A stretch of 25,340 bases of DNA from a virus (lineage: Duplodnaviria > Heunggongvirae > Uroviricota > Caudoviricetes). Both the position numbers and the translations under genes were made by a program. The stretch lies in the IMG/VR virus record IMGVR_UViG_641736116_000024. One strand, 5' to 3'. Within the stretch, counting starts at the first letter, position 1; the number at the start of each line of letters is the position of its first letter. Below, piece by piece: positions 1-21,444 of the stretch. The notes beneath the pieces are model-generated. The model was not told the DNA's origin, did not search any database, and saw only the letters and a program-made list of their open reading frames with translations.

Positions 1-702
1 ATGACTTTAAAGCGTTTGCAACTGATCGAAATGCCAATGTTATGTCGCAGGAGGAATGGGAAGCGTTGCGTGCGCTTATATCCGGGATTTACAGCAGGGA
101 AAGCATCCAGTGCGCAAGTCAATAAGGTTATTCGGCAGGCCAGCTTTATTGCTGCAGCTCTGGCCCAGTTTGTAAGTGATAAAACGCAACGGGATGTGCT
201 TGATAATGGTGATCTGCCCGGTTTTGTTGAATTGCTGGGATCGGGGTTTGCTGTTGAATACCTGAGCCGCAAGAATCCGTTTGGCGATATCAAATCGGAC
301 GGCACGGTGAAAACGGCTTTCATAAACGTTGGTTTGGGAGAAGCGGCAAAACGGGATGTGGGGACAGGGGAAAATCAGATACCGGACATGGCCTCTTTTG
401 CCAGTGGTGATGGATGGATGAAATTACCCAACGGTAAAATCCTGCAATATGGTCGTGGTGCGGTTACGCCGACATTATCGACGCAAACAATGAGAATTAC
501 ATTCAGCATCCCTTTCCCCAAAAAAGCGGACTGCGCCATGCTTACTCATTCTGGTGATGGCGGTGCGCCTTTAGGCGCTGGGCGAGGGTTCGTGATGACT
601 GCAGAAGGCCCAACGTTAACCGGCTTTAATTCTGCTTACAGAACGTCATCAACCAGCGACACGGTATCGATGAATTACAGTTGGTGGGCTGTTGGTGAGT
701 AA
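1..702 (+). CDS. Silent (promoterless) alternative tail-fibre C-terminal cassette; the part from about 344 to 702 would fuse to the H N-terminus after inversion. Upstream part (1-343) may be a decayed remnant.
   Basis: Frame 1 is open from position 1 to the stop at 700-702 with no start context. It is followed immediately by its own tail-fibre assembly gene and lies opposite and convergent to H-G. It shares an in-frame GLGE-coding 15-mer with H at the proposed crossover site. Confidence 0.5.
317..342. promoter_or_regulatory. Candidate serine-invertase crossover site (cix/gix/hix-like), outer copy
   Basis: CTTTCATAAACG-TT-GGTTTGGGAGAA. The inner arm plus centre (329-343) is a perfect 15-bp inverted copy of 2219-2233; the outer arm is degenerate. 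Confidence 0.5.
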
Positions 703-722
703 TTTTATTCAGGGTGATTTAT

Positions 723-1166
723 ATGAACGAATATGTTTATAGCGCAAGGCATAATGCTTTTTTCCCTGTGGATATGATTGATAAATATAAATCAGAGGGA
801 TGGGATTTATCAGACGCTAAGGAAGTAAATCAAAATATTATCAGTGAGTTTATGGCTGAACCGCCACAAGGAAAAATCCGTATTGCCGGAGATGATGGGC
901 TGCCTGCGTGGGCAGATATTCCTCCACCCACGCATGAAGAACTTATTGAAATTACTGAATCAGAAAGACAGCTACTAATTAACCAGGCCAACGAATACAT
1001 GAACAGTAAGCAATGGCCCGGTAAAGCCGCTATTGGTCGTCTGAAAGGTGAGGAACTGGCACAATATAATTTGTGGCTGGATTATCTGGACGCACTGGAG
1101 CTGGTCGATACCGCCAGTGCGCCAGATATTGAATGGCCTACGCCTCCGGCAGTTCAGGCCAGATGA
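723..1166 (+). CDS. Tail fibre assembly protein (alternative copy, Tfa')
   Basis: C-terminus NLWLDYLDALELVDTASAPDIEWPTPP is the conserved Tfa/gpG-type tail. The ATG at 723 has AGGGTG upstream. Its 3' end overlaps the convergent G gene. Confidence 0.8.
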   Translation: MNEYVYSARHNAFFPVDMIDKYKSEGWDLSDAKEVNQNIISEFMAEPPQGKIRIAGDDGLPAWADIPPPTHEELIEITESERQLLINQANEYMNSKQWPGKAAIGRLKGEELAQYNLWLDYLDALELVDTASAPDIEWPTPPAVQAR

Positions 1167-1740
1167 CATCCGGCGCGGTGCTGGTATCTGTTGCCGTCAC
1201 CGCGTCAATGTAATCCAGCACCGTGTTAAGTCGGTTGGTTTCTGCCTGCGTCAGCTTCCGTCCGGCCTGTAATTTCAGCTGAATCAGACTAATGGAAGCC
1301 ATTGCAGTATCAATCAGCGACTGGCGTTGTGTTTCTGCCGCTTCTACTGCGGCGCTATGCTGTGCTTCGGTATCCGTCACCCATTTCTCACCATCCCATT
1401 TATCGTATGGCGTTAACGGGGCGATAGTGGTTGTATTATCAGGGTAATCACCCGGAGCGGTGATTTCTTTTGATTCTCCTGTTTCGGTGCTAAAGACGAT
1501 TTCACCGCGATGGTCTGGCACATATTCCCATGAGTTAAAATCTGCAGAACGGCAGATTGCATAACCAGCTTTGTATGCGCCTGGGGCATCTAAACAGGAA
1601 TATGCCGGAATGCCGACACCAATAGCAAGATATTCAGTTGAAGCTGAAATATATTCCCGACTCATGACATCAAAGTTATAAACAGTAATTTCTCCTGCCA
1701 TAGTGGCAATTAATTCACTGTTTAATTCTGCGTTATTCAT
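1138..1740 (-). CDS. G: Tail fibre assembly protein (P2 gpG-like)
   Basis: 200 aa; C-terminus LNTVLDYIDAVTATDTSTAPDVIWPELP is Tfa-type. Start overlaps the H stop by 1 nt. Confidence 0.85.
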   Translation of the reverse strand: MNNAELNSELIATMAGEITVYNFDVMSREYISASTEYLAIGVGIPAYSCLDAPGAYKAGYAICRSADFNSWEYVPDHRGEIVFSTETGESKEITAPGDYPDNTTTIAPLTPYDKWDGEKWVTDTEAQHSAAVEAAETQRQSLIDTAMASISLIQLKLQAGRKLTQAETNRLNTVLDYIDAVTATDTSTAPDVIWPELPEA

Positions 1741-3059
1741 TATGCAGCCCTCACAATATAGTTAAAAGCGACATTTCGTGGGCGTGTTTCATTCGCACCT
1801 GCAGGTTTAGTCGTTGCCGCAACAACACCACCCTCTGTAATAGCCGGGTTGGGAATTGGGTAATTATCGAAGTTAATGGCCGGAGACAGGGGCGTGATTT
1901 GTTTTAAAATCGTGGTGCCTGTAAAACTTTCCAGAGTCTGGTCGTTAGTTCGTGAAGTCCAGATTCCCCAATAGTGGTTATGACTGACAATCGCACCGTC
2001 CTGAAGCGTCAATAATCCCCTTCCGTTATCCACTCCACGTCCGTCATCCCAGCCACGAATAAACTCACCACGTAAATCAGGCAATTTATTTGTCGGGTAA
2101 ACCTTTGCCAGTTCCGGGTATTCTTCAGCAGAAAAAGCCGCCCCGTTGCATTTCAGCCAGCCTGTCGGCGGAGTGGCTGAAGGCCACGGAACAGGCACAC
2201 CAACGGGTAATGCCGAACCTTCTCCCAAACCAAGGTATGCGAGAAGACCGGCAACATCCTTTCCACTCAAATGAGTCAGCGTCTCATCCAGTGGCTGCTT
2301 ACCTGACAGCGCATTGTTAATGGTGGTGCTGAATTTCGGGTCATTGTTAATGGCCGCGGCAATTTCTTTCAGTGTGTCCAGCGTGTCTGGCGCGCCGTTA
2401 ATCAGAGCGGTAATAGCGGTCTGAACAAACTCAGTGGTCGCAATCCGCGTGGTGTTATTTCCTGCGGCAGGCGTTGGCGCTTTTGGTTCTCCGGTAAATG
2501 TCGGATTATGTTTCTGCGCATACTGGGTATGAGGATCCTGTGCGGCAATGTGGTTTCTCATCTGGTCATCCACATACAGCCTTAATTCCAGGACTTTATC
2601 ATCCACGTATTTACGGGTCGCCAGTACCACCGACGGGTCGATTTTCAGCGTGATGGCTTCGGTATTCGTGACAACCAGAATCATGCGGATAGTCTGGGTA
2701 CGACCGCTGCCTTCCTGTAACTGCGGTTTGTACGTTTCCGGGCAGTTCGCCACCGCAATGAGTACGCCTTCATCATCATAAAGCCCAATCTCACGGATCC
2801 AGAATCCGCCCTCGTTCTCAGGGATGATTTGCTCCGCAATAATCTGGCTCTGGTTGTTCGGGTCAACACTCAGAAGATTCAGCGGCGCGATGCGTTTCTG
2901 GTTAATAAGTTTTGTCTGTGCCGGGTCAGGTGTCGGCAAGACACCATTTGCATCACCAACGGCCATTTGCGTCAGATTCAGCTTACTGCCGAGCATCGTC
3001 GCGTTAGCCAGCCGTGCCGCGCCCTGATTAGTCAGAATGGCGTAGTATTTCACTGTCAT
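1740..3059 (-). CDS. H: Tail fibre protein H: P2-H-like N-terminal domain with a different C-terminal receptor-binding region carrying a phage tail-collar-like motif
   Basis: 439 aa. N-terminal about 150 aa follow the P2 gpH pattern (MAVGD, GGFW.RE.GLYDD.G.LIAVAN, YKP.L.EGSGR, YVDDK). C-terminal region contains GWLKCNGAAFSAEEYPELAKVY...LPDLRGEFIRGWDDGRG. Confidence 0.9.
   Translation of the reverse strand: MTVKYYAILTNQGAARLANATMLGSKLNLTQMAVGDANGVLPTPDPAQTKLINQKRIAPLNLLSVDPNNQSQIIAEQIIPENEGGFWIREIGLYDDEGVLIAVANCPETYKPQLQEGSGRTQTIRMILVVTNTEAITLKIDPSVVLATRKYVDDKVLELRLYVDDQMRNHIAAQDPHTQYAQKHNPTFTGEPKAPTPAAGNNTTRIATTEFVQTAITALINGAPDTLDTLKEIAAAINNDPKFSTTINNALSGKQPLDETLTHLSGKDVAGLLAYLGLGEGSALPVGVPVPWPSATPPTGWLKCNGAAFSAEEYPELAKVYPTNKLPDLRGEFIRGWDDGRGVDNGRGLLTLQDGAIVSHNHYWGIWTSRTNDQTLESFTGTTILKQITPLSPAINFDNYPIPNPAITEGGVVAATTKPAGANETRPRNVAFNYIVRAA
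2220..2245. promoter_or_regulatory. Candidate serine-invertase crossover site inside H (26-bp imperfect palindrome)
   Basis: TTCTCCCAAACC-AA-GGTATGCGAGAA; arms match 10/12 as inverted repeats. Close to the recalled hixL/gix pattern TTCTTGAAAACC-AA-GGTTTTTGATAA. Lies in frame at the YLGLGE codons of H. Confidence 0.55.
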
Positions 3060-3667
3060 GCGTTTACTCTCAGGTTATCAATTAAATGAATGGCCGAGGC
3101 CGGGAAATAATCCCCTCCGACAATAATGGCCTCCGGGGTGTAGGGATAAACCGTCAGGGCGTCGCCGTGATAGCATCCCGCACCGGCAAAAATGTTGCCG
3201 GTTGTACTTAAACTGATAGCCAGTCCCGTCAGATGGCGGCTTGCAGGTTTTGCATCAGCAACGAGACGCTCCAGCTCCTGATACATTTCCTCGGTAATAC
3301 CCTGCTCAAGCACGCCAACAACGATGCGGAACGTCCCCGGCTCCTCGTTGAGCTGCCACCACTCCCTCACCTCAATCAGATAGCCGAGCGGCTCCACCAC
3401 ACGGCGAATCGCACCAATAGTGCCCTTATGGCAGTGAATGAAATACGCATCGCGGATAACAGCGCGTTTTGTCGCTTCCGGCCACTTATCATCCCAGCGG
3501 TCAACCGAAAATGACCACGCCAGCCACGGCAGCAGATTTGCCGGACAGGTATCCGGGTTCCACAGCTCACGAATACTGACCGGCGTTTTTTCAATTTCCG
3601 CACAGGCTCTTGCGGCGGCGACTTCAAGCGGTGATGAGCCGGTCGGCAGCAGGCGCGAATCACTCAT
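3056..3667 (-). CDS. I: Baseplate assembly protein gpI
   Basis: 203 aa, N-terminus MSDSRLLPTGSSPLE typical of P2 gpI; position between J and H. Confidence 0.9.
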   Translation of the reverse strand: MSDSRLLPTGSSPLEVAAARACAEIEKTPVSIRELWNPDTCPANLLPWLAWSFSVDRWDDKWPEATKRAVIRDAYFIHCHKGTIGAIRRVVEPLGYLIEVREWWQLNEEPGTFRIVVGVLEQGITEEMYQELERLVADAKPASRHLTGLAISLSTTGNIFAGAGCYHGDALTVYPYTPEAIIVGGDYFPASAIHLIDNLRVNA

Positions 3668-11993: not shown

Positions 11994-13766
11994 ATGACCA
12001 TCACCACAGACACCACTCTTTTACACGACCCGCGTCGTCAGGCGGCGCTGCTGTACTGGCAGGGATTTTCCGTGCCGCAGATTGCCGCCATGTTGCAGAT
12101 GAAACGCCCGACGGTGCAGAGCTGGAAACAGCGCGACGGCTGGGACAGCGTTGCCCCCATCAGCCGTGTCGAAATGAGTCTGGAAGCGCGGCTGACCCAG
12201 CTCATCATCAAACCGCAGAAAACCGGCGGTGACTTCAAGGAAATTGACCTGCTCGGACGCCAGATTGAACGACTGGCACGGGTAAACCGCTACAGCCAGA
12301 CCGGCAACGAGGCAGACCTTAATCCGAACATCGCTAACCGCAACAAAGGCGGGCGGCGCAAACCGAAAAAGAATTTTTTCAGTGACGAGGCTATCGAAAA
12401 GCTGGAGCAGATTTTCTTTGAGCAGTCTTTCGAATATCAGTTGCACTGGTATCGCGCCGGGCTTGAGCACCGCATCCGCGATATCCTGAAATCCCGCCAG
12501 ATTGGCGCGACGTTTTATTTTTCCCGCGAGGCGCTGCTGCGCGCCCTGAAAACCGGTCATAACCAGATTTTTCTGTCGGCCAGTAAAACGCAGGCGTATG
12601 TGTTCCGCGAATACATCATCGCCTTTGCCCGGCTGGTTGACGTTGACCTGACCGGTGACCCGATTGTCCTGGGCAATAACAGCGCAAAACTGATTTTTCT
12701 CGGCACCAACTCCAACACCGCGCAGAGCCATAACGGCGACCTGTACGTCGACGAGATTTTCTGGATACCGAATTTTCAGGTACTGCGTAAGGTGGCATCA
12801 GGTATGGCCTCACAGAGTCACCTGCGCTCGACCTATTTCTCCACCCCGTCCACGCTGGCGCACGACGCCTACCCGTTCTGGTCGGGTGAACTGTTCAACC
12901 GGGGACGCGCCAGCGCCGCCGAACGCGTGGAAATCGACGTCAGTCATAACGCTCTTGCCGGTGGGCTTCTCTGTGCGGACGGTCAGTGGCGGCAGATTGT
13001 CACCATTGAGGACGCCCTGAAAGGTGGCTGCACGCTGTTCGACATTGAGCAGCTTAAACGCGAAAACAGCGCCGACGATTTTAAAAACCTGTTCATGTGT
13101 GAATTTGTTGACGACAAGGCGTCGGTGTTCCCGTTCGAGGAGCTGCAACGCTGCATGGTCGACACGCTGGAAGAATGGGAAGACTATGCGCCGTTTGCCG
13201 CGAATCCGTTCGGCTCCCGCCCGGTCTGGATTGGTTACGACCCGTCACACCGTGGCGACAGTGCCGGATGCGTGGTGCTGGCACCGCCGGTGGTGGCCGG
13301 TGGCAAATTCAGAATACTTGAGCGTCACCAGTGGAAAGGCATGGACTTTGCCACCCAGGCTGAATCCATCCGCAAACTCACCGAAAAATACAACGTCGAA
13401 TACATCGGAATTGATGCCACCGGCCTCGGTGTCGGCGTGTTCCTGCTCGTTCGCTCGTTCTATCCCGCCGCACGCGATATCCGCTACACGCCGGAAATGA
13501 AAACCGCAATGGTGCTCAAGGCAAAAGACGTTATTCGCCGTGGCTGTCTGGAATATGACGTCAGCGCCACCGACATCACCAGCTCGTTTATGGCTATCCG
13601 CAAGACCATGACCAGCAGCGGACGCAGCGCCACCTATGAGGCCAGCCGCAGCGAGGAAGCCAGCCACGCCGACCTCGCCTGGGCGACCATGCACGCCCTG
13701 TTAAATGAGCCACTCACCGCCGGTATCAGCACCCCGCTGACATCCACCATTCTGGAGTTTTACTGA
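11994..13766 (+). CDS. P: Terminase ATPase (large) subunit gpP
   Basis: Start MTITTDTTLLHDPRRQAALLYWQGF with GAGGT upstream gives 590 aa; stop overlaps the Q start. Confidence 0.9.
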   Translation: MTITTDTTLLHDPRRQAALLYWQGFSVPQIAAMLQMKRPTVQSWKQRDGWDSVAPISRVEMSLEARLTQLIIKPQKTGGDFKEIDLLGRQIERLARVNRYSQTGNEADLNPNIANRNKGGRRKPKKNFFSDEAIEKLEQIFFEQSFEYQLHWYRAGLEHRIRDILKSRQIGATFYFSREALLRALKTGHNQIFLSASKTQAYVFREYIIAFARLVDVDLTGDPIVLGNNSAKLIFLGTNSNTAQSHNGDLYVDEIFWIPNFQVLRKVASGMASQSHLRSTYFSTPSTLAHDAYPFWSGELFNRGRASAAERVEIDVSHNALAGGLLCADGQWRQIVTIEDALKGGCTLFDIEQLKRENSADDFKNLFMCEFVDDKASVFPFEELQRCMVDTLEEWEDYAPFAANPFGSRPVWIGYDPSHRGDSAGCVVLAPPVVAGGKFRILERHQWKGMDFATQAESIRKLTEKYNVEYIGIDATGLGVGVFLLVRSFYPAARDIRYTPEMKTAMVLKAKDVIRRGCLEYDVSATDITSSFMAIRKTMTSSGRSATYEASRSEEASHADLAWATMHALLNEPLTAGISTPLTSTILEFY

Positions 13767-14800
13767 TGAGCAAGAAAAAAGGGAAAACACCGCAACCTGC
13801 GGCAAAAAAAATGACCGCCAGCGCCCCGAAAATGGAGGCATTCACCTTTGGTGAACCGGTGCCGGTACTCGACCGCCGTGACATTCTGGATTACGTCGAG
13901 TGCATCAGTAACGGCAGATGGTATGAGCCACCGGTCAGCTTTACCGGTCTGGCAAAAAGCCTGCGTGCTGCCGTACATCACAGCTCACCGATTTACGTCA
14001 AACGTAATATTCTGGCTTCAACGTTTATTCCGCACCCGTGGCTTTCCCAGCAGGATTTCAGCCGCTTTGTGCTGGATTTTCTGGTGTTCGGTAATGCGTT
14101 TCTGGAAAAGCGTTACAGCACCACCGGTAAGGTCATCAGACTGGAAACCTCACCGGCAAAATATACCCGCCGTGGCGTGGAGGAGGATGTTTACTGGTGG
14201 GTGCCGTCCTTCAACGAGCCGACAGCCTTCGCGCCCGGCTCCGTGTTTCACCTGCTGGAGCCGGATATTAATCAGGAGCTGTACGGCCTGCCGGAATATC
14301 TCAGCGCCCTTAATTCTGCCTGGCTGAATGAGTCGGCCACGCTGTTCCGCCGCAAGTATTACGAAAACGGCGCTCATGCCGGATATATCATGTACGTCAC
14401 CGATGCCGTGCAGGATCGCAACGATATCGAAATGCTTCGCGAAAACATGGTCAAGTCGAAAGGCCGCAACAACTTTAAAAATCTGTTTCTCTATGCCCCG
14501 CAGGGGAAAGCCGACGGCATTAAAATTATCCCGCTCAGTGAAGTGGCAACGAAGGACGATTTTTTTAATATCAAAAAAGCCAGCGCCGCTGACCTGCTGG
14601 ACGCGCACCGCATCCCCTTTCAGTTGATGGGCGGCAAGCCGGAGAACGTCGGGTCGCTGGGTGATATTGAGAAAGTGGCAAAGGTCTTTGTCCGCAATGA
14701 GCTTATCCCGCTACAGGACAGGATCCGCGAGATAAACGGCTGGCTCGGTCAGGAGGTCATCCGCTTTAAAAACTACTCACTGGACACTGACAACGGCTGA
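13766..14800 (+). CDS. Q: Portal vertex protein gpQ
   Basis: 344 aa, P2 gpQ length and position. Confidence 0.95.
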   Translation: MSKKKGKTPQPAAKKMTASAPKMEAFTFGEPVPVLDRRDILDYVECISNGRWYEPPVSFTGLAKSLRAAVHHSSPIYVKRNILASTFIPHPWLSQQDFSRFVLDFLVFGNAFLEKRYSTTGKVIRLETSPAKYTRRGVEEDVYWWVPSFNEPTAFAPGSVFHLLEPDINQELYGLPEYLSALNSAWLNESATLFRRKYYENGAHAGYIMYVTDAVQDRNDIEMLRENMVKSKGRNNFKNLFLYAPQGKADGIKIIPLSEVATKDDFFNIKKASAADLLDAHRIPFQLMGGKPENVGSLGDIEKVAKVFVRNELIPLQDRIREINGWLGQEVIRFKNYSLDTDNG

Positions 14801-14828: not shown

Positions 14829-14969
14829 CACCCCGTCATCACGCCCTCACACGCTCACCACCGCACAAAACACCCCGCAGACACACCAACGCCTCAACGG
14901 GCAGACTAAGCGCCATCACGACGCGCTCAGACGCTGAAAAAATAAAATCAGCACCACCGCCAGCGCGCA

Positions 14970-14988
14970 GTGCTTTCCCCGCCTCGCC
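14970..14988. other. cos: cos site (19-nt cohesive end sequence)
   Basis: GTGCTTTCCCCGCCTCGCC is the exact reverse complement of the P2 cohesive end GGCGAGGCGGGGAAAGCAC as I recall it; it lies between Q and the cargo region, as in P2. Confidence 0.8.
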
Positions 14989-15117
14989 CGCCCGCTTCAT
15001 GTGGCGATTTTAATGCGGTTGCATTTTTATCGAAAGTCTCGTCTCACAAATCCCTCCCTTCACTAAATAGACTCATTATCCACATGCAATCTAATTCAAA
15101 AAAATGCATGTATAGTA

Positions 15118-17088
15118 TTAAAGGTCATCAATTAAACCTAAAGGCAAACCGTCCTCACCAACCGAGCTATAATGAGCGATAATATTCGAAAGTTCACCAG
15201 TAGAAAACGAATTAGGCAAATCATTATCAACTAATATAATCTGGCACGGAACATTTTTTCTTTCTGCTTTTTGAACTGTATTCAATAGTTGTTCATAAAT
15301 ATTTTGATACTTCATCGGATCTGACATTCCCTCAAGGTCATCCTCGAATGCAAGAGTTTCTTTTGAATATTTTTCCTTGGTCTGTTTCCCTAAATATTTG
15401 CCAACCGTATCAAATATCAAAAGTAAAGGATGGTTAACATTATGATCTATTGCATAATCAAGAATAGACAAAAGATACCCAATAGAAGAAATAGTTCTCA
15501 AACCTCCGGATGTTATTTTAAAATATTCTTTTTCTCTTATAACAGGAATGTAATAGCTTTCAGAGATTTTTATCCCCGTTCTGTTTTTGATATTAATACC
15601 CTTCAAATACTGACTAAATCTATCACCCAAACCTTGTAAAATGCCCTCCATGCTAGGTGCGTTTTTCTTTAACGCCTCCAAGCGTTCAGTTAATGCTTCA
15701 ATATCTTTTCTCAGTACCTGATACTTTTCAAGCAGTTCCTCTTGCTGGTTTCTAACCTTCAAATCTTTTACTAACTGCTCCCTAACCTTCTCATTTTTTG
15801 AGATCTCTTTAATATAAAAATCTCTCTGAGTCAAGAATGGTGTAATCATTGACTGGCTTTCTTCGTCAATCAATTCTCTCAACTCGTCAAGTCGTTCATC
15901 TAATTCCTTTTTATAACCTGATTCTTTTTTTAATTTAAATGACATTTCTGAGATCATGTCATTAATATTTCGTCTACGTCGACTAAGTGAATTCAACTCT
16001 TCATTAAGATCTTTTTCTGATGAAATTTCAAATGGAAAATCAGAATCATCTATTTTAATGTGGCTATCACAGACTGGACAGGAAAATACTTCCTTATCCA
16101 ATACACCAATGCGAGAATTTGCTGTTTTAATCGCTTTGAGTTTTTCAATATCATTATCATAGTCATTTTTTAACCGCGAATATTTATCAATCTTATCCTC
16201 AAGCGCAGTAATATTTAATATGCACTCTTTGTATTTAAGCGAAATAAAATTGTGAGCATCTTTCAATTCTGTATACTGTATGGAATCCGCTTTCATATTT
16301 TTATCGAGAGCAGACAAACCTGCAACAAGTTCTTCTAAAACAAGATCTATCCTATTAATCTCATCATCAATTGATTCAATCGTTTCATAGTCTGTATCGC
16401 GAAGAAATTCAGATATTATCTGATACTTCCTATTTAATTCCGTTACTAAACTACTTTTTGCAGATATTTCACCTTGGAGTCTGGCGATGCTTTCATCCAA
16501 CACATTGAACATGTATTTAAAAACTTCTTTCGTAAATGCGTAGCGGGACCAATCACCCAATCGCAAGAAAGATTTACTACCAATATCATCCTGACTTACA
16601 TAAACAAATTTATATATATTTCTAAAACTTAACCTGCGCATCTGTGAATGAGCTTTAGAAGGAGACACCTTAATTTCAATCTTTGGAAAATTAAGACTAT
16701 CAAGTAAAAACTCCGAAAAAACACCATCAACATTTGATAATGGGCTATAATTAGGAGCGTATTTTTTCGGAAAATGTTTATGTAAATCATCAAACTTACA
16801 ACGATAAACTTCTATTGCTTTTTTATGATCATAGATATCTCTTACGATTGTGAATACAGTATCATTGATCACTACTTCAAGAGCAGCATAGTTTACTGAT
16901 GTTTTTATTTCATCTGCTAAATCTATAGAGCTAGCACCTAAAAGATAATTAATAAACTCCAGAATGCTTGACTTACCTGTGTCAGAGTCTCCGTAGATAA
17001 CATTGAGACCTTTATAAAAAGTAGTGACGTAGTTTTTACGAACGCCAACAAGAATCAAACTATTGATATTGAGATATGATTTCATCAT
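15118..17088 (-). CDS. ABC/SMC-Rad50-like ATPase with central coiled coil and CxxC zinc hook; ATPase component of an ABC-three-component (Lamassu-like) system
   Basis: 656 aa. Walker A GDSDTGKS (aa 33-40); long charged, heptad-rich middle containing CPVCDSH; C-terminal signature-like KITSGGLR; Walker B/D-loop LLLIFDTVG. No TOPRIM or nuclease domain recognised. Start overlaps the upstream stop (ATGA). Confidence 0.75.
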   Translation of the reverse strand: MMKSYLNINSLILVGVRKNYVTTFYKGLNVIYGDSDTGKSSILEFINYLLGASSIDLADEIKTSVNYAALEVVINDTVFTIVRDIYDHKKAIEVYRCKFDDLHKHFPKKYAPNYSPLSNVDGVFSEFLLDSLNFPKIEIKVSPSKAHSQMRRLSFRNIYKFVYVSQDDIGSKSFLRLGDWSRYAFTKEVFKYMFNVLDESIARLQGEISAKSSLVTELNRKYQIISEFLRDTDYETIESIDDEINRIDLVLEELVAGLSALDKNMKADSIQYTELKDAHNFISLKYKECILNITALEDKIDKYSRLKNDYDNDIEKLKAIKTANSRIGVLDKEVFSCPVCDSHIKIDDSDFPFEISSEKDLNEELNSLSRRRRNINDMISEMSFKLKKESGYKKELDERLDELRELIDEESQSMITPFLTQRDFYIKEISKNEKVREQLVKDLKVRNQQEELLEKYQVLRKDIEALTERLEALKKNAPSMEGILQGLGDRFSQYLKGINIKNRTGIKISESYYIPVIREKEYFKITSGGLRTISSIGYLLSILDYAIDHNVNHPLLLIFDTVGKYLGKQTKEKYSKETLAFEDDLEGMSDPMKYQNIYEQLLNTVQKAERKNVPCQIILVDNDLPNSFSTGELSNIIAHYSSVGEDGLPLGLIDDL

Positions 17089-17597
17089 TTCTCCTTGAAG
17101 ACTTGATTTATAACAGAGTTTAACTTAGAGGTAGGCAATGCTTGTAGCGGTAACAATGCTTCGGATAGTCGTTTTATTTCTTTAAAATATCCATCAGTCA
17201 ATGAGCTAGCAAATTCCTTACCTTTTTCAGATAAAAATAATTTAACACTCTCATTATTTTTTTTCTCAGCTGAGAGCAATCCCCGCAATGACATAATTTT
17301 TATAAGATATTTCACTTTGGAATTGTCGAATAAGATATCTACATTTGTTGAAAAACTCTTTATTGTATAAGTTAACTGGGACTCGACACAAGCAGGCTTT
17401 TTCCCCGAAACTGTAAGAGCATAATCAATTTTTGATGGGTTTTTTATCAGATACATAAAAATTTGTATTTTATTAATATCTAATGATAACACTCCTTTTT
17501 TGCTATGAGATAATATAGATATAGCAATGGCAAGCATAGCAAAATTCAAGCTATACTCTTCATCAAGAGGAATATACGGCAAGTTATTTTTCTTCAT
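17085..17597 (-). CDS. Small middle component of the three-gene system (LmuC-like position)
   Basis: 170 aa with no recognisable motifs; AT-rich; translationally coupled on both sides (14-nt and 4-nt overlaps). Confidence 0.5.
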   Translation of the reverse strand: MKKNNLPYIPLDEEYSLNFAMLAIAISILSHSKKGVLSLDINKIQIFMYLIKNPSKIDYALTVSGKKPACVESQLTYTIKSFSTNVDILFDNSKVKYLIKIMSLRGLLSAEKKNNESVKLFLSEKGKEFASSLTDGYFKEIKRLSEALLPLQALPTSKLNSVINQVFKEK

Positions 17598-18807
17598 GAT
17601 TACCTCGCCGTAATTGCTCCAAAGTTTCTACGCTGGTTTCAGATGACCAGACAATATCCCTGTCATTTTTGTTAGCCAGTTGATGCAACATTCCTTTCTT
17701 ATGTATCGTTTCTAAACTTTTTATAAGAGAATCTAACGACGACTTATCCTCTTGGGCTATTCGTCTATGAACAGCAGCAATAAATTTATCTGGGGAAATT
17801 GAATTCGCGATATATTGCTCATACTCTTCCTGGTAAATCTCCCTTATTTTAGAATACAAATGACCAAGTAGTTTCCTATCGTAATCACTCGTAAAAATAT
17901 TTCTCGCAAGCTCAGCATTATAATAATATTCCTTTGCATGCATAGCGATATCCTGATGTATATCTGCGACAATCATTTTTAAGACGAAATACTCATTATC
18001 ATATTGTTTCTCATCAGAAAAACGCTCAACACATATCTTCTTGGGTGCTTCTAAATTTATCTGCTGAATAAATTGCTTTACCGCAACAAACACTGTAGAC
18101 GAGCTGTTTTCGGGCTTGCAAATTGAGCTATGCCCTTCATTAACTGCAATTGAGTTATTTCGTTCACTATCCATCGGTAATGCGCTTTTTTTATCAACTA
18201 TAGTGTCATGAGAACCATAAACATATCTAGTGATAGGAAGTTTTTTGCTACAATTTATCCAGCGCCTATTCAACGTATCGGTCGCTTCACTTAACAATCC
18301 AAGATCTACTAACTGAGCATTTGAAGATACCATTGAAGTTATATTCGCCAATTTAGCACCAAAGTGAGGGACTGCTAACGAAATGAATCCAATTATATTA
18401 GATTGTTCCTCATGCTCAACTTTTTTTAGAATTAGATTTTTTGATATTACCCCCCCCATACTATGGGCGATTATTATAATTCGAGAGTAATCACTTAGCG
18501 TTACCCTAATCTCAGTATACAATAACTCAGCTATTTCATCAGTTGGTAAATTTCTCTCTAACTTATTTTTCTTAGAGAAAATACGAGCCCATAATCCTGA
18601 CGTTTTAGCATACGTTTGTGTAAATTTGGTGAAATAATTGAAACATGCAATATCAAATACATTGCCAATGTCTTCATCTTCTGCTAATAGTTTTGGAAAT
18701 GAAGTTTCTTTATTAAAGTTCCATGTTTCCAAACCACCATTTAATCCATGTACAAATAGTATCAGGCTATCTTTTTTCTCGTGGCTTATCCATTCAACCA
18801 TGCTCAT
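17584..18807 (-). CDS. Alpha/beta-hydrolase (lipase/esterase-like) effector with a C-terminal helical domain; LmuA-like effector position
   Basis: 407 aa. Oxyanion-hole LILFVHG (His20-Gly21), nucleophile elbow IIIAHSMGG (Ser116), downstream YVYGSHDTIVD and NEGHSS as candidate Asp/His. C-terminal about 180 aa is helical and charged. Confidence 0.7.
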   Translation of the reverse strand: MSMVEWISHEKKDSLILFVHGLNGGLETWNFNKETSFPKLLAEDEDIGNVFDIACFNYFTKFTQTYAKTSGLWARIFSKKNKLERNLPTDEIAELLYTEIRVTLSDYSRIIIIAHSMGGVISKNLILKKVEHEEQSNIIGFISLAVPHFGAKLANITSMVSSNAQLVDLGLLSEATDTLNRRWINCSKKLPITRYVYGSHDTIVDKKSALPMDSERNNSIAVNEGHSSICKPENSSSTVFVAVKQFIQQINLEAPKKICVERFSDEKQYDNEYFVLKMIVADIHQDIAMHAKEYYYNAELARNIFTSDYDRKLLGHLYSKIREIYQEEYEQYIANSISPDKFIAAVHRRIAQEDKSSLDSLIKSLETIHKKGMLHQLANKNDRDIVWSSETSVETLEQLRRGNHEEK

Positions 18808-18896
18808 ATGCTTTTCTGCCGTGTATAAAAATTAAACTATAACAAACAATTCCTCAACAATAACATATTGTTACCCCGTTTGACCGTTTTTTTCAA
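18808..18896 (-). promoter_or_regulatory. Putative promoter region for the cargo operon
   Basis: AT-rich intergenic spacer between the A stop and the hydrolase start, with TATAGT and TATACA -10-like hexamers on the minus strand. No experimental support. Confidence 0.3.
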
Positions 18897-21179
18897 CTAC
18901 CACTCACGCTGTCTGTCAAAAAAGTCGATATCGTTATCAAATTTAAAACGCTTATGCCCAAAATCCAAAACAGCTCCGCGAGCGAGAGCTTCAAGCTCCC
19001 AATAACTAGCCTGAATGTCACTTTGTGCAAGAAGAACCTTAATTTTCGGGATAGTCTTTCTCTCCTGCCTTGTCAACCGGGCGGATGGGGCAGGAAAGTA
19101 GCTTCGACCATTGAAAGGGGTAAAGCTCTGCTGTGAACGATTACTGCATTTCAGTTCATTACTCAATAAGTCTCTAAGTACCTTCATAATGCCTGGCTCG
19201 GTCCAACTTAGAATCCCTTCATCTATTAAATTTAACACCGCTGCAGCATGCTCAGTCGGTGTGGGAGCCGGTAACGAAGTATCACCACCGGTGAGTTTTC
19301 CACAGTTATTGACAGGACTCCGAGGCGCGGCGATGCCGCTTTTTAAAGTCAAAGGCTCAACGACCGGAACTTTCGGCACAATGCGCCAGTCCGTCGTTCT
19401 GGTGATATGAATATGACGCGCGCCGAGATGCGGCGCGTAAATGCCGACCACTCTCTCGACTTCTTCCTCGTACTCGTTAACGTCATCCGACGGGCTACGG
19501 GCGACCCTGACAGTCTGACAATCGCGCGGGACATTTGCCCCACCCTGCGCGCTGATATACAACGCAAAATCACCACTGTCTGCGGCAGCGCGAGCAGCCT
19601 CGACGCGTTCGTCAAACTCATCAGCAATACTGACGCCGCGAGGCAATTTGCGTAGTTCACGGTAAGCCCCCATTGTCGGCAGTCCAACCGTTTTAAATTG
19701 CGGAATGCGCCACGTTGACGCCCATGCGGTAACAGCCGCGGCAGTATCTTTAAGCGGCTTACCGGTATCGTTATCGAGCTGACCATCCAGTGCATAGCCG
19801 TCGATGTTTTTTGAAATGTATTTCGCGATATATCCCGCAGCACCGCCCCGGTTAAGGTGTTTTGCCTGAAAACGGTTTCGCGCAGCTCCTCTTTCGTCTC
19901 CATCCTCTTTGAGCGCGTAGCGACGCATGATTTCGATAATCTGGTTACGCTGGCGTGGATTACAAAAAAGCATCATATGCCAGTGCGGCGTTCCGTCGTG
20001 GTGTGGCTCGACGACACGCAAACCGTAGACCTGTAAATCATTATCCTTGAATGCCGTGCGCATCAGGCTCCAGATGCGGCAGAGATAACGCTGCGCATCC
20101 TTTGGATTAAATGCCTCATCGTTCCAGCCGTGATTAAGCTGAACGGTTTTACTTTCGCCTTTTCTGACCTGACGTGTCGGGTGATACTTTGACGGCGCGG
20201 TCAGCGTGATAAACATCCCCACATCACCCTCTGCGGCGGCGTAACGCTCAATACCGGCAATGGTGTTCATCAGCTCCATCCGGCGAATTTCAGGATTAGA
20301 AATACTGCCCATCACCTTACTGATAAGGTCGATGCGCTCGCCGGTTTCCCTGTTTTCAAGGTCACACGATTTAAGAAATTCCAGATTTGCCTGGCGGCGC
20401 GCACGCACATCACGAATGGCGTGTTTACTGGCATAAGGAGAACGGTCTTTATTGACCTCCCCGACAGCTATCAGTAACGCTTCATGCCAGCGCATACGCT
20501 GGCCTTTAAGCTGATGAGTCCACCACTCATCGTTAAACAGACGGGCAATGGCAGAATATGCCTGCCTCGTGGTCATCTGCCCTTTACGGTATATTTTCCA
20601 GTAGAGAGGGGAAATATTGAAAGCACGTGCAGCGCCAGCAACATGACCATAGAGGTGAGCCTGCGCCTCATCCGTAAACAGCGATTCTTTTTCGCCATGC
20701 GCATCCACCCAGGCATCACTGAGTTCCCCATACATCATGAAAAGCTGCGATGAGATACGGGCAGCAAACTTTTTCAGCTCCTTGTCATTCATTCCCGGCA
20801 GGCGCGCATAGTGGTCACGCTCTGCCAGAAACAGTAACGACGCGTCGGTGTTCATTTCATGGCGCTGATTCACACGCTCAATGCGCGGCCATAAACGACG
20901 CTGAAAAGTGGATGTGAGGAAATAAAACCCGTGCACCGGGCTTTTATTGCGCCGGATGTGGTCATAGCGTGAAGTAAACAGCGAGCGCAAAAAGTAAGGC
21001 AGGCGGTTAATCGTGGATAAAACACCTTGCACCTGACGCATCTCGTCACGTGTAAGGGGTCTTTCGCGCCCGACGGCCTCGCGTGGCGCGTTCCATGCAT
21101 AAGCACCGGTAAACGCCTTACCGGTGCCTGCAGCAAATGCTGACGGAGGGACAAAACGCCCGGAGGCTTTAACGGCCAT
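18897..21179 (-). CDS. A: Replication initiation endonuclease gpA (rolling-circle initiator)
   Basis: Start MAVKASGRFVPPSAFAAGTGK as in P2 gpA, giving about 760 aa. The ORF track extends 14 codons upstream. The C-terminal region of about 100 aa is AT-rich and appears to diverge from P2 gpA as I recall it. Confidence 0.9.
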   Translation of the reverse strand: MAVKASGRFVPPSAFAAGTGKAFTGAYAWNAPREAVGRERPLTRDEMRQVQGVLSTINRLPYFLRSLFTSRYDHIRRNKSPVHGFYFLTSTFQRRLWPRIERVNQRHEMNTDASLLFLAERDHYARLPGMNDKELKKFAARISSQLFMMYGELSDAWVDAHGEKESLFTDEAQAHLYGHVAGAARAFNISPLYWKIYRKGQMTTRQAYSAIARLFNDEWWTHQLKGQRMRWHEALLIAVGEVNKDRSPYASKHAIRDVRARRQANLEFLKSCDLENRETGERIDLISKVMGSISNPEIRRMELMNTIAGIERYAAAEGDVGMFITLTAPSKYHPTRQVRKGESKTVQLNHGWNDEAFNPKDAQRYLCRIWSLMRTAFKDNDLQVYGLRVVEPHHDGTPHWHMMLFCNPRQRNQIIEIMRRYALKEDGDERGAARNRFQAKHLNRGGAAGYIAKYISKNIDGYALDGQLDNDTGKPLKDTAAAVTAWASTWRIPQFKTVGLPTMGAYRELRKLPRGVSIADEFDERVEAARAAADSGDFALYISAQGGANVPRDCQTVRVARSPSDDVNEYEEEVERVVGIYAPHLGARHIHITRTTDWRIVPKVPVVEPLTLKSGIAAPRSPVNNCGKLTGGDTSLPAPTPTEHAAAVLNLIDEGILSWTEPGIMKVLRDLLSNELKCSNRSQQSFTPFNGRSYFPAPSARLTRQERKTIPKIKVLLAQSDIQASYWELEALARGAVLDFGHKRFKFDNDIDFFDRQREW

Positions 21180-21444
21180 ATGAGCCAAAAGCCTCTGAGC
21201 AACGCTTGCTGAGTTGCTCAACCTGCGCGTTTAAATCAGCAAAAGACTTTGCGCTTCCGGTCAGAATATCGTGATGCATCAGGCCGGAAACGAGCTGGCT
21301 TAATTTCGGGTAATAACCAACCACCGCCAGCCATTCCTGACCGGCGTTTTTACCGCTTTCCGCTCTCTTTTTCTCGTGGAGAATAAACTGAAAGCTGTCA
21401 CTGGTAACGACATAACGTTCGCCAATTTCAATACGAATACTCAT
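21169..21444 (-). CDS. Small early-operon protein (P2 orf83 position)
   Basis: 91 aa, in the early operon immediately upstream of A. Confidence 0.6.
   Translation of the reverse strand: MSIRIEIGERYVVTSDSFQFILHEKKRAESGKNAGQEWLAVVGYYPKLSQLVSGLMHHDILTGSAKSFADLNAQVEQLSKRCSEAFGSYGR

Follow-up and report, generated by a model that had tools for sequence, protein, structure and literature searches.

A lipase-like alpha/beta-hydrolase as the predicted effector of a type II short Lamassu system in a P2-like prophage of Escherichia coli O157:H7

Does the defence operon carried by a P2-like prophage act by cleaving DNA, or through a hydrolase directed at a different kind of bond? The question is raised by IMG/VR virus record IMGVR_UViG_641736116_000024 (Duplodnaviria; Heunggongvirae; Uroviricota; Caudoviricetes), a stretch of 25,340 nucleotides (nt) that is referred to here as the window. 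Judged by their sequence, three genes on its minus strand, lmuA, lmuC and lmuB (15118-18807), make up a type II 'short' Lamassu system that is complete and whose effector is an alpha/beta-hydrolase. A first-pass annotation had described the first gene, which is indeed the 5'-most of the three, as a lipase/esterase-like serine hydrolase rather than a nuclease, fused to a charged helical C-terminal domain (CTD) that could dock onto an ATPase complex. The N-terminal part of LmuA is an alpha/beta-hydrolase with an invariant Ser116-Asp201-His226 triad at canonical positions. Its features are listed below in amino acid (aa) and window coordinates.

17584-18807, minus strand: lmuA, Lamassu/ABC-three component (ABC-3C) effector of 407 aa (alpha/beta-hydrolase plus CTD8); open reading frame (ORF) list, PADLOC and RefSeq WP_000063136.1
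18043-18807, minus strand: N-terminal alpha/beta-hydrolase (DUF676/PGAP1-like lipase) domain of LmuA, aa 1-255
18745-18750, minus strand: His20-Gly21, oxyanion-hole dipeptide after strand 14-19; conserved in 109/109 homologs, placed by model
18451-18468, minus strand: AHSMGG nucleophile elbow, aa 114-119; Ser116 codon at 18460-18462, Ser116 conserved in 109/109
18205-18207, minus strand: Asp201, candidate catalytic acid (SHD, aa 199-201), conserved in 109/109, in the loop after strand 192-198
18130-18132, minus strand: His226, candidate catalytic base (GHS, aa 225-227), conserved in 109/109, in the loop after strand 219-222
17641-18015, minus strand: LmuA CTD8, aa 265-389, predicted all-helical docking/oligomerisation module; Pfam PF20284

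Four Pfam families exceed their curated cut-offs on LmuA, with matches confined to the N-terminal 210 residues: DUF676 (36.7 bits, cut-off 20.3), PGAP1 (30.6 bits, cut-off 24.3), Abhydrolase_1 (26.7 bits, cut-off 25.8) and LCAT (22.2 bits, cut-off 21). A homolog database search with LmuA returned 194 homologs, and alignments of 43 and 109 sequences, reaching down to 39% identity, were analysed. His20, Gly21, His115, Ser116, Gly118, Gly119, His148, Asp201 and His226 are unchanged in every aligned homolog of both sets. As eight or more residues are invariant in 109/109 homologs and the Pfam thresholds are passed, the LmuA motifs exceed chance. The hydrolase signature that had been read from the letters is thus borne out by the profiles, and the HG dipeptide, the AHSMGG elbow with Ser116 and the SHD and GHS motifs all stand at the residues first assigned to them. 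The protein also matches the PADLOC LmuA model PDLC03851 (E 3.5e-108) across aa 3-406, and full-length hidden Markov model coverage together with the 194 homologs rules out a spurious ORF.

In a canonical alpha/beta-hydrolase the oxyanion HG follows an early strand, the nucleophile elbow G/A-x-S-x-G joins a strand to a helix, and successive core strands are followed by loops that bear first the Ser, then the acid and then the His. Judged by secondary-structure placement, two AlphaFold2 models position HG, Ser116, Asp201 and His226 of LmuA in agreement with this topology, with Ser116 at the turn that joins strand 109-115 to helix 117-132. The predicted local distance difference test (pLDDT) score of the hydrolase core is ~90, with block means of 88-95 around His20-Gly21, Ser116 and His226; Asp201 opens a block that averages 67 in the second model. 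A Protein Data Bank (PDB) search with the single LmuA sequence gave nothing significant (best E 0.083). Significant PDB matches were obtained only with the family profile, and the top ones are the RavL putative lipase, BlEst2 lipase, LPLA2, GPI inositol-deacylase, LCAT and PlaB. The profile alignment to RavL (7x2p) pairs AHSMGG with AHSRGG, Asp201 with the Asp of 'KEDAI' and His226 with the His of 'HGHLSI'. Generic alpha/beta-hydrolases are the sole matches of LmuA in the BFVD viral fold library. A further motif, SLAVPH.G (aa 143-150; nt 18358-18381), follows strand 138-144 and is invariant at all positions except 149; BlEst2 and RavL share it in the form G.P(H/F).G.

The C-terminal part of LmuA was expected to be a charged helical domain of about 180 aa. 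Charge and helicity are confirmed, and the length is revised to ~150 aa (about 255-407), with 23 K/R and 27 D/E per 153 residues. This region matches Pfam PF20284, CTD8 ('C-terminal domain 8 of the ABC-three component systems'), with E 1.7e-35 and 122.5 bits. Its pLDDT was 27-71 in the first model and ~75 after the 109-sequence alignment, where helices span 272-400; fold searches with whole LmuA return alpha/beta-hydrolase matches only. A CTD-only sequence search, which covered 1.84 billion representative proteins, yielded 55 clusters, in which nearly all full-length members have 396-416 aa and carry the CTD at ~260-405. Ten among the remotest CTD8 proteins were scanned with Pfam. Eight of the ten bear a DUF676/PGAP1/LCAT-type domain, whereas in two (P0165 and P0168) a Cap4 dsDNA endonuclease domain precedes CTD8; one shorter protein of 319 aa (P0164) matches CTD8 and CTD7 alike. 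CTD8 is therefore related to CTD7 of the structurally solved nuclease Lamassus, and on these sequences the lipase appears to be an effector swapped onto a docking module common with nuclease Lamassus. This relatedness and the apparent swap are the strongest sequence-level support for the non-nuclease reading. Within CTD8, the motif HKKGMLHQLAN (aa 369-379; nt 17671-17703) has K370, G372 and M373 invariant in the 109 homologs, with H369, H375, Q376, L377, A378 and N379 conserved in at least 90% of them. It is a candidate interface with LmuB/LmuC or a candidate self-association surface.

The partner genes and the putative limits of the operon are as follows.

17085-17597, minus strand: lmuC, middle component MC4 of 170 aa; its start overlaps the lmuA end by 14 nt
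15118-17088, minus strand: lmuB, short SMC/Rad50-like ABC ATPase of 656 aa; its start overlaps the lmuC end by 4 nt
16969-16992, minus strand: LmuB Walker A, GDSDTGKS (Lys39)
16069-16080, minus strand: LmuB CPVC, aa 337-340, zinc-hook CxxC at the coiled-coil apex
15502-15510, minus strand: LmuB SGG signature motif (aa 527)
15409-15423, minus strand: LmuB Walker B-like LLIFD (aa 556), followed by Thr and not Glu (deviant)
18867-18896, minus strand: promoter-like site TTGAAA-18-AACAAT, 60-90 nt 5' of lmuA; weak, consensus match only
14951-14966, minus strand: terminator-like hairpin 3' of lmuB; consensus match only

LmuC is identified by Pfam MC4 (PF20290; E 5e-27, 95.3 bits) and, over its full length, by the PADLOC LmuC model (E 1.5e-52), and its single-sequence PDB search gave no match. 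LmuB matches PADLOC LmuB PDLC03862 over its full length (2-656; E 1.5e-235). It also matches Pfam SMC_N and AAA_23, with partial NCBIfam SMC/Rad50 matches on the coiled coil, a charged middle region in which residues 191-500 are 52% E/K/R/D/L/Q; the single-sequence PDB search with LmuB returned nothing significant (best 9hqu, 'DUF3732', E 0.057). The deviant Walker B has been noted in LmuB proteins (bioRxiv 10.1101/2025.03.14.643221), and the zinc hook is given as a feature of lipase clade H (PMC12663957). RefSeq names the three products 'ABC-three component system protein' (LmuA), 'ABC-three component system middle component 4' and 'AAA family ATPase'. All sequence features of a Lamassu/ABC-3C system are thus present, namely a LmuB ATPase, a LmuC encoded between, a LmuA composed of effector and CTD, and a tight co-directional operon. 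No nuclease family was detected on LmuA, LmuC or LmuB with Pfam, NCBIfam or PADLOC (for LmuA at E <= 1). A nuclease-type Lamassu with a Cap4, PD-(D/E)xK, Mrr or HNH LmuA was consequently rejected, as LmuA lacks a nuclease domain, and the early statement that the effector is not a nuclease holds on this ground and on that of the CTD8 effector swap.

How might such an effector be controlled, and on what would it act? In Cap4-type Lamassu complexes visualized by cryo-electron microscopy, the CTD tethers a single LmuA to the coiled coils of two LmuB subunits, with LmuC also present; the system detects replication intermediates of a phage or DNA ends, and LmuA is freed, oligomerises via its CTD and is active (PMC12663957; bioRxiv 10.1101/2025.06.23.660979; 10.1101/2025.03.14.643221). 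Lipase LmuAs of the CTD8 and CTD9 families are predicted to oligomerise, with activation still to be established (10.1101/2025.03.14.643221). In other Lamassu members, anti-phage activity depends on LmuC, on the ATPase of LmuB and on the active site of the effector (10.1101/2022.05.11.491447; PMC12663957). Ec-Lipase, an E. coli lipase-type Lamassu (Haudiquet et al., PNAS 2025), guards against Lambda-vir; its defence is lost with LmuB K42A or LmuA H215A, and its overexpression toxicity is removed by the LmuA catalytic mutant only (PMC12663957). For the locus described here, with its assigned domains, invariant triad, conserved operon and prophage context, a mechanism can be modelled on the Cap4-type complexes and the Ec-Lipase mutants. 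One LmuA would be kept inactive via its CTD on the core of the LmuB dimer and LmuC, and LmuB would detect DNA ends or replication intermediates of an incoming phage. ATP-dependent engagement of the LmuB heads would free LmuA, which would self-associate by its CTD, switching on the hydrolase. Active LmuA would then cleave ester bonds, most probably of membrane (phospho)lipids, and the infected cell would be killed or arrested (abortive infection) without DNA cleavage. Taken as a whole, this account, in which the lipase-type LmuA of a type II short Lamassu is sequestered by its CTD, released on sensing and causes abortive infection by ester cleavage, is considered very likely. The part of it in which LmuA is a non-nuclease effector that would dock through its CTD is supported; its docking is modelled on the cryo-electron microscopy structures of CTD7 and CTD12 systems and on the relatedness of CTD8 to CTD7.

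Several observations weigh against this account. Oligomerisation has so far been found to activate nuclease LmuAs only, and for lipase LmuAs it is a suggestion based on AlphaFold3 (AF3) (10.1101/2025.03.14.643221). The literature searchable here contains no experiment on exactly this system. By published residue numbering, Ec-Lipase is a different protein: the present LmuA has its catalytic His at 226 and a Glu at 215, and the present LmuB has its Walker A Lys at 39 and an Ile at 42. Scans for promoters and terminators gave no more sites than shuffled sequence, with matches no better than chance, and the limits of the operon therefore rest on the gene overlaps and on the GC island described below. 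The top Foldseek matches of the LmuA model include thioesterases, NDRG proteins and dehalogenases, and fold and profile matches cannot tell a lipase from a thioesterase or general esterase. The lid regions (aa 61-85 and 150-171) have pLDDT values below 50 in both models. In such hydrolases the lids usually set substrate specificity.

The last two points bear on the alternative that survives best, in which the Lamassu is the same and LmuA acts on a soluble ester, thioester or amide and not on a membrane lipid. Conceivable targets are acyl-acyl carrier protein (acyl-ACP), acyl-CoA, acylated proteins and lipoproteins, peptides and small metabolites, and the cell would be arrested by metabolic or proteolytic damage. 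This alternative is regarded as possible and clearly the less probable one. Membrane phospholipid is the most probable substrate because the nearest families are lipid-acting by name or annotation and because lid 1 is basic and aromatic. The above-threshold Pfam families DUF676, PGAP1 and LCAT and the best PDB matches bear names or annotations that describe lipases or acyl hydrolases acting on lipids; lid 1 (aa 57-88) contains 7 K/R and 10 hydrophobic or aromatic residues, a composition that would be expected for interfacial binding.

The window as a whole looks like an intact prophage of the P2 type from E. coli O157:H7, in which the Lamassu operon is low-GC cargo in the GpA-cos-GpQ defence hotspot. 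The relevant features are listed here.

13766-14800, plus strand: P2 portal protein GpQ, flank
14970-14988, minus strand: 19-mer GGCGAGGCGGGGAAAGCAC, exact match, ~130 nt past the lmuB stop; 0 expected by chance
~15000-18900: sharply bounded low-GC cargo island with 33% guanine plus cytosine (GC) and a third-codon-position GC (GC3) of 0.28-0.30, within a prophage of 47-55% GC
18897-21221, minus strand: P2 replication endonuclease GpA, flank

The left flank of the island has 55% GC, and the neighbouring gpA has a GC3 of 0.53. In a 2026 survey of P2-like phages, the GpA-GpQ locus is the chief hotspot for defence genes (PMC13586616). Strains of E. coli O157:H7, e.g. TW14359, carry the island on the chromosome with 100% identity. 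It is present in identical form in 96 of 5426 complete E. coli genomes, in a single copy each and always as a chromosomal prophage copy. Neither the operon DNA (megablast) nor LmuA (tblastn) found a match among 50,697 INPHARED phage records, so the family seems to be known from prophages only. PHROGs v4 holds full-length families for all three proteins (phrog_1846, 1894 and 1637), each labelled 'unknown function', a label that reflects incomplete annotation rather than missing knowledge. LmuA homologs with 42-43% identity occur in Pseudomonas aeruginosa and Methylomonas; an MC4 gene and then the gene of a 662-670-aa ATPase come after them, with gene order and overlapping junctions as here. The P. 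aeruginosa operon (CP199231.1) adjoins a Gabija-like pair (OLD-TOPRIM ATPase and UvrD helicase), Fic and NERD/zinc-ribbon genes, a neighbourhood that is a typical defence island.

The 19-mer GGCGAGGCGGGGAAAGCAC is presumably the P2 cohesive end (cos). With the putative cos ~130 nt past the lmuB stop, the Lamassu cargo would be right at one terminus of the DNA as packaged. A system of the type that senses DNA ends is thus encoded ~130 nt from the phage's own putative DNA end. P2 replicates by a nick-primed rolling circle, which yields cos ends. As a DNA-end sensor adjoins the putative cos and gpA, the prophage would need a way to spare itself from its own Lamassu, and such sparing on induction might use timing, an inhibitor or a structural blind spot. 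Two further readings, namely that (a) LmuA has a specific target such as a lipid carrier, a lipoprotein or lipopolysaccharide acyl chain or acyl-ACP, instead of bulk phospholipid, and that (b) the P2-like prophage must spare itself on induction, are judged improbable. If true, (a) would be a new way of cell killing by a defence system.

Slightly less probable still is that the main role of the operon is the exclusion of plasmids or competing prophages, or a benefit to P2 itself (e.g. addiction or maintenance), and not abortive infection against lytic phages. DdmABC-type Lamassu removes plasmids besides phages, the operon lies ~130 nt from the putative cos and beside a replication gene, and each of the 96 copies in E. 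coli sits in a prophage on the chromosome. Such a role would employ the same machinery, however, and is compatible with the lipase-effector account; moreover, GpA-GpQ is a documented anti-phage hotspot (PMC13586616), and a lipase Lamassu guards against Lambda-vir (PMC12663957). Finally, the notion that the hydrolase domain is a dead scaffold, with toxicity and defence arising from LmuB/LmuC or from an unrecognised CTD activity, is very improbable: Lamassu clades without LmuA or any effector have been reported (clade O, PMC12663957), whereas none of the 109 aligned homologs, from Gammaproteobacteria and Bacteroidota, deviates at the Ser, the Asp, the His or the oxyanion HG, and the catalytic His mutant of the related Ec-Lipase loses defence and toxicity (PMC12663957). 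A pseudoenzyme was likewise rejected on account of the invariant triad.

The 5' end of lmuA is ambiguous (window 18799-18807). Met1 is the start in RefSeq and in the ORF list, which gives an ATG (407 aa). In P0001, the largest cluster in the database with 374 sequences (100% identical), the protein begins at Met3 (405 aa), and the remotest LmuA homologs start at the Met3 position. The true start could be Met3, in which case all LmuA residue numbers would be 2 lower. No clear Shine-Dalgarno sequence was found upstream of the Met1 or the Met3 ATG. The 89-nt gpA-lmuA intergenic region contains an inverted repeat, AACAATA-ACA-TATTGTT (plus strand; 7-nt arms, 3-nt spacer), at 18856-18872, which shares nucleotides with the -10-like hexamer of the sole promoter-like site 5' of lmuA. 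This repeat could be an operator, or it could be mere chance.

A segment with tail-fibre genes at nt 1-2240 of the window is invertible. Its 'recombinase family protein' gene, of the Gin/Cin/Pin type and on the minus strand, extends to nt 262 and is truncated at the first letter of the window. Next come an alternative C-terminal fragment of the fibre (293-703, plus strand), two tail-fibre assembly genes in opposite orientations (724-1167, plus strand, and 1139-1741, minus strand) and the tail-fibre gene (1741-3060, minus strand). The 18-nt inverted repeat ACGTTGGTTTGGGAGAAG (94%) occurs at 326-343 and 2219-2236, with one arm within the fibre gene, and its arms are probably crossover sites for host-range switching.

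The system type was already known, as models or names exist in Pfam, PADLOC, DefenseFinder and RefSeq and the effector class is described (PMC10586767); the Ec-Lipase mutants published in 2025 are evidence that a lipase effector works by catalysis. The present locus confirms that P2-like prophages carry and spread Lamassu effectors other than nucleases within an important lineage of pathogens, E. coli O157:H7 (96/5426 complete E. coli genomes). It also offers a cleanly delimited natural test case for what a lipase-like LmuA hydrolyses and for whether release and oligomerisation activate it. Current understanding is otherwise unchanged, with system type, domains and hotspot location all documented.

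Several known proteins and systems can be compared with LmuA and its partners. The CapV-type phospholipase effectors of CBASS (cyclic-oligonucleotide-based antiphage signalling system) are patatin-fold enzymes that use a Ser-Asp dyad and respond to a cyclic dinucleotide as activator; degradation of membrane lipids, leading to abortive infection, has been proposed or shown. Their likeness to LmuA would be functional only, as LmuA is an alpha/beta-hydrolase with a Ser-Asp-His triad and would be sequestered on an SMC-like sensor. The compact DUF676/PGAP1-like lipases BlEst2 (Bacillus licheniformis, 6wpx) and RavL (a Legionella effector, 7x2p) have only 14-17% identity with LmuA. They are secreted or translocated and have neither CTD8 nor ATPase partners, and the LmuA substrate cannot be deduced from either.

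The Cap4-nuclease Lamassus (V. cholerae DdmABC and Salmonella LmuACB, with NTD-Cap4, CTD7 and MC3) share with the present system the operon logic, the LmuB family (PADLOC cross-matches with E 1e-57 to 1e-74) and an N-terminal enzyme followed by a C-terminal helical docking domain of a related CTD family. They differ in having a PD-(D/E)xK DNA endonuclease in place of the serine hydrolase, and CTD7 and MC3 in place of CTD8 and MC4; the Vc-Cap4 clade lacks the zinc hook that the present LmuB possesses. AF3 predictions suggest that an active lipase LmuA is not a tetramer (10.1101/2025.03.14.643221). With respect to the ABC-3C classification, in which alpha/beta-hydrolase is a listed effector class (PMC10586767), the CTD8 (122.5 bits) and MC4 (95.3 bits) matches are strong and no difference was found. 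The closest resemblance is to Ec-Lipase and the DefenseFinder Lamassu_Lipase, which are likewise three-gene short Lamassus and combine a lipase-type LmuA and a LmuC with a short LmuB that bears a CxxC zinc hook. The DefenseFinder example has LmuA/LmuC/LmuB of 413/183/627 aa, versus 407/170/656 aa here, and in Ec-Lipase, too, the catalytic His of the lipase triad is an effector residue. The present system is of the same subtype as Ec-Lipase and is a different member of it.

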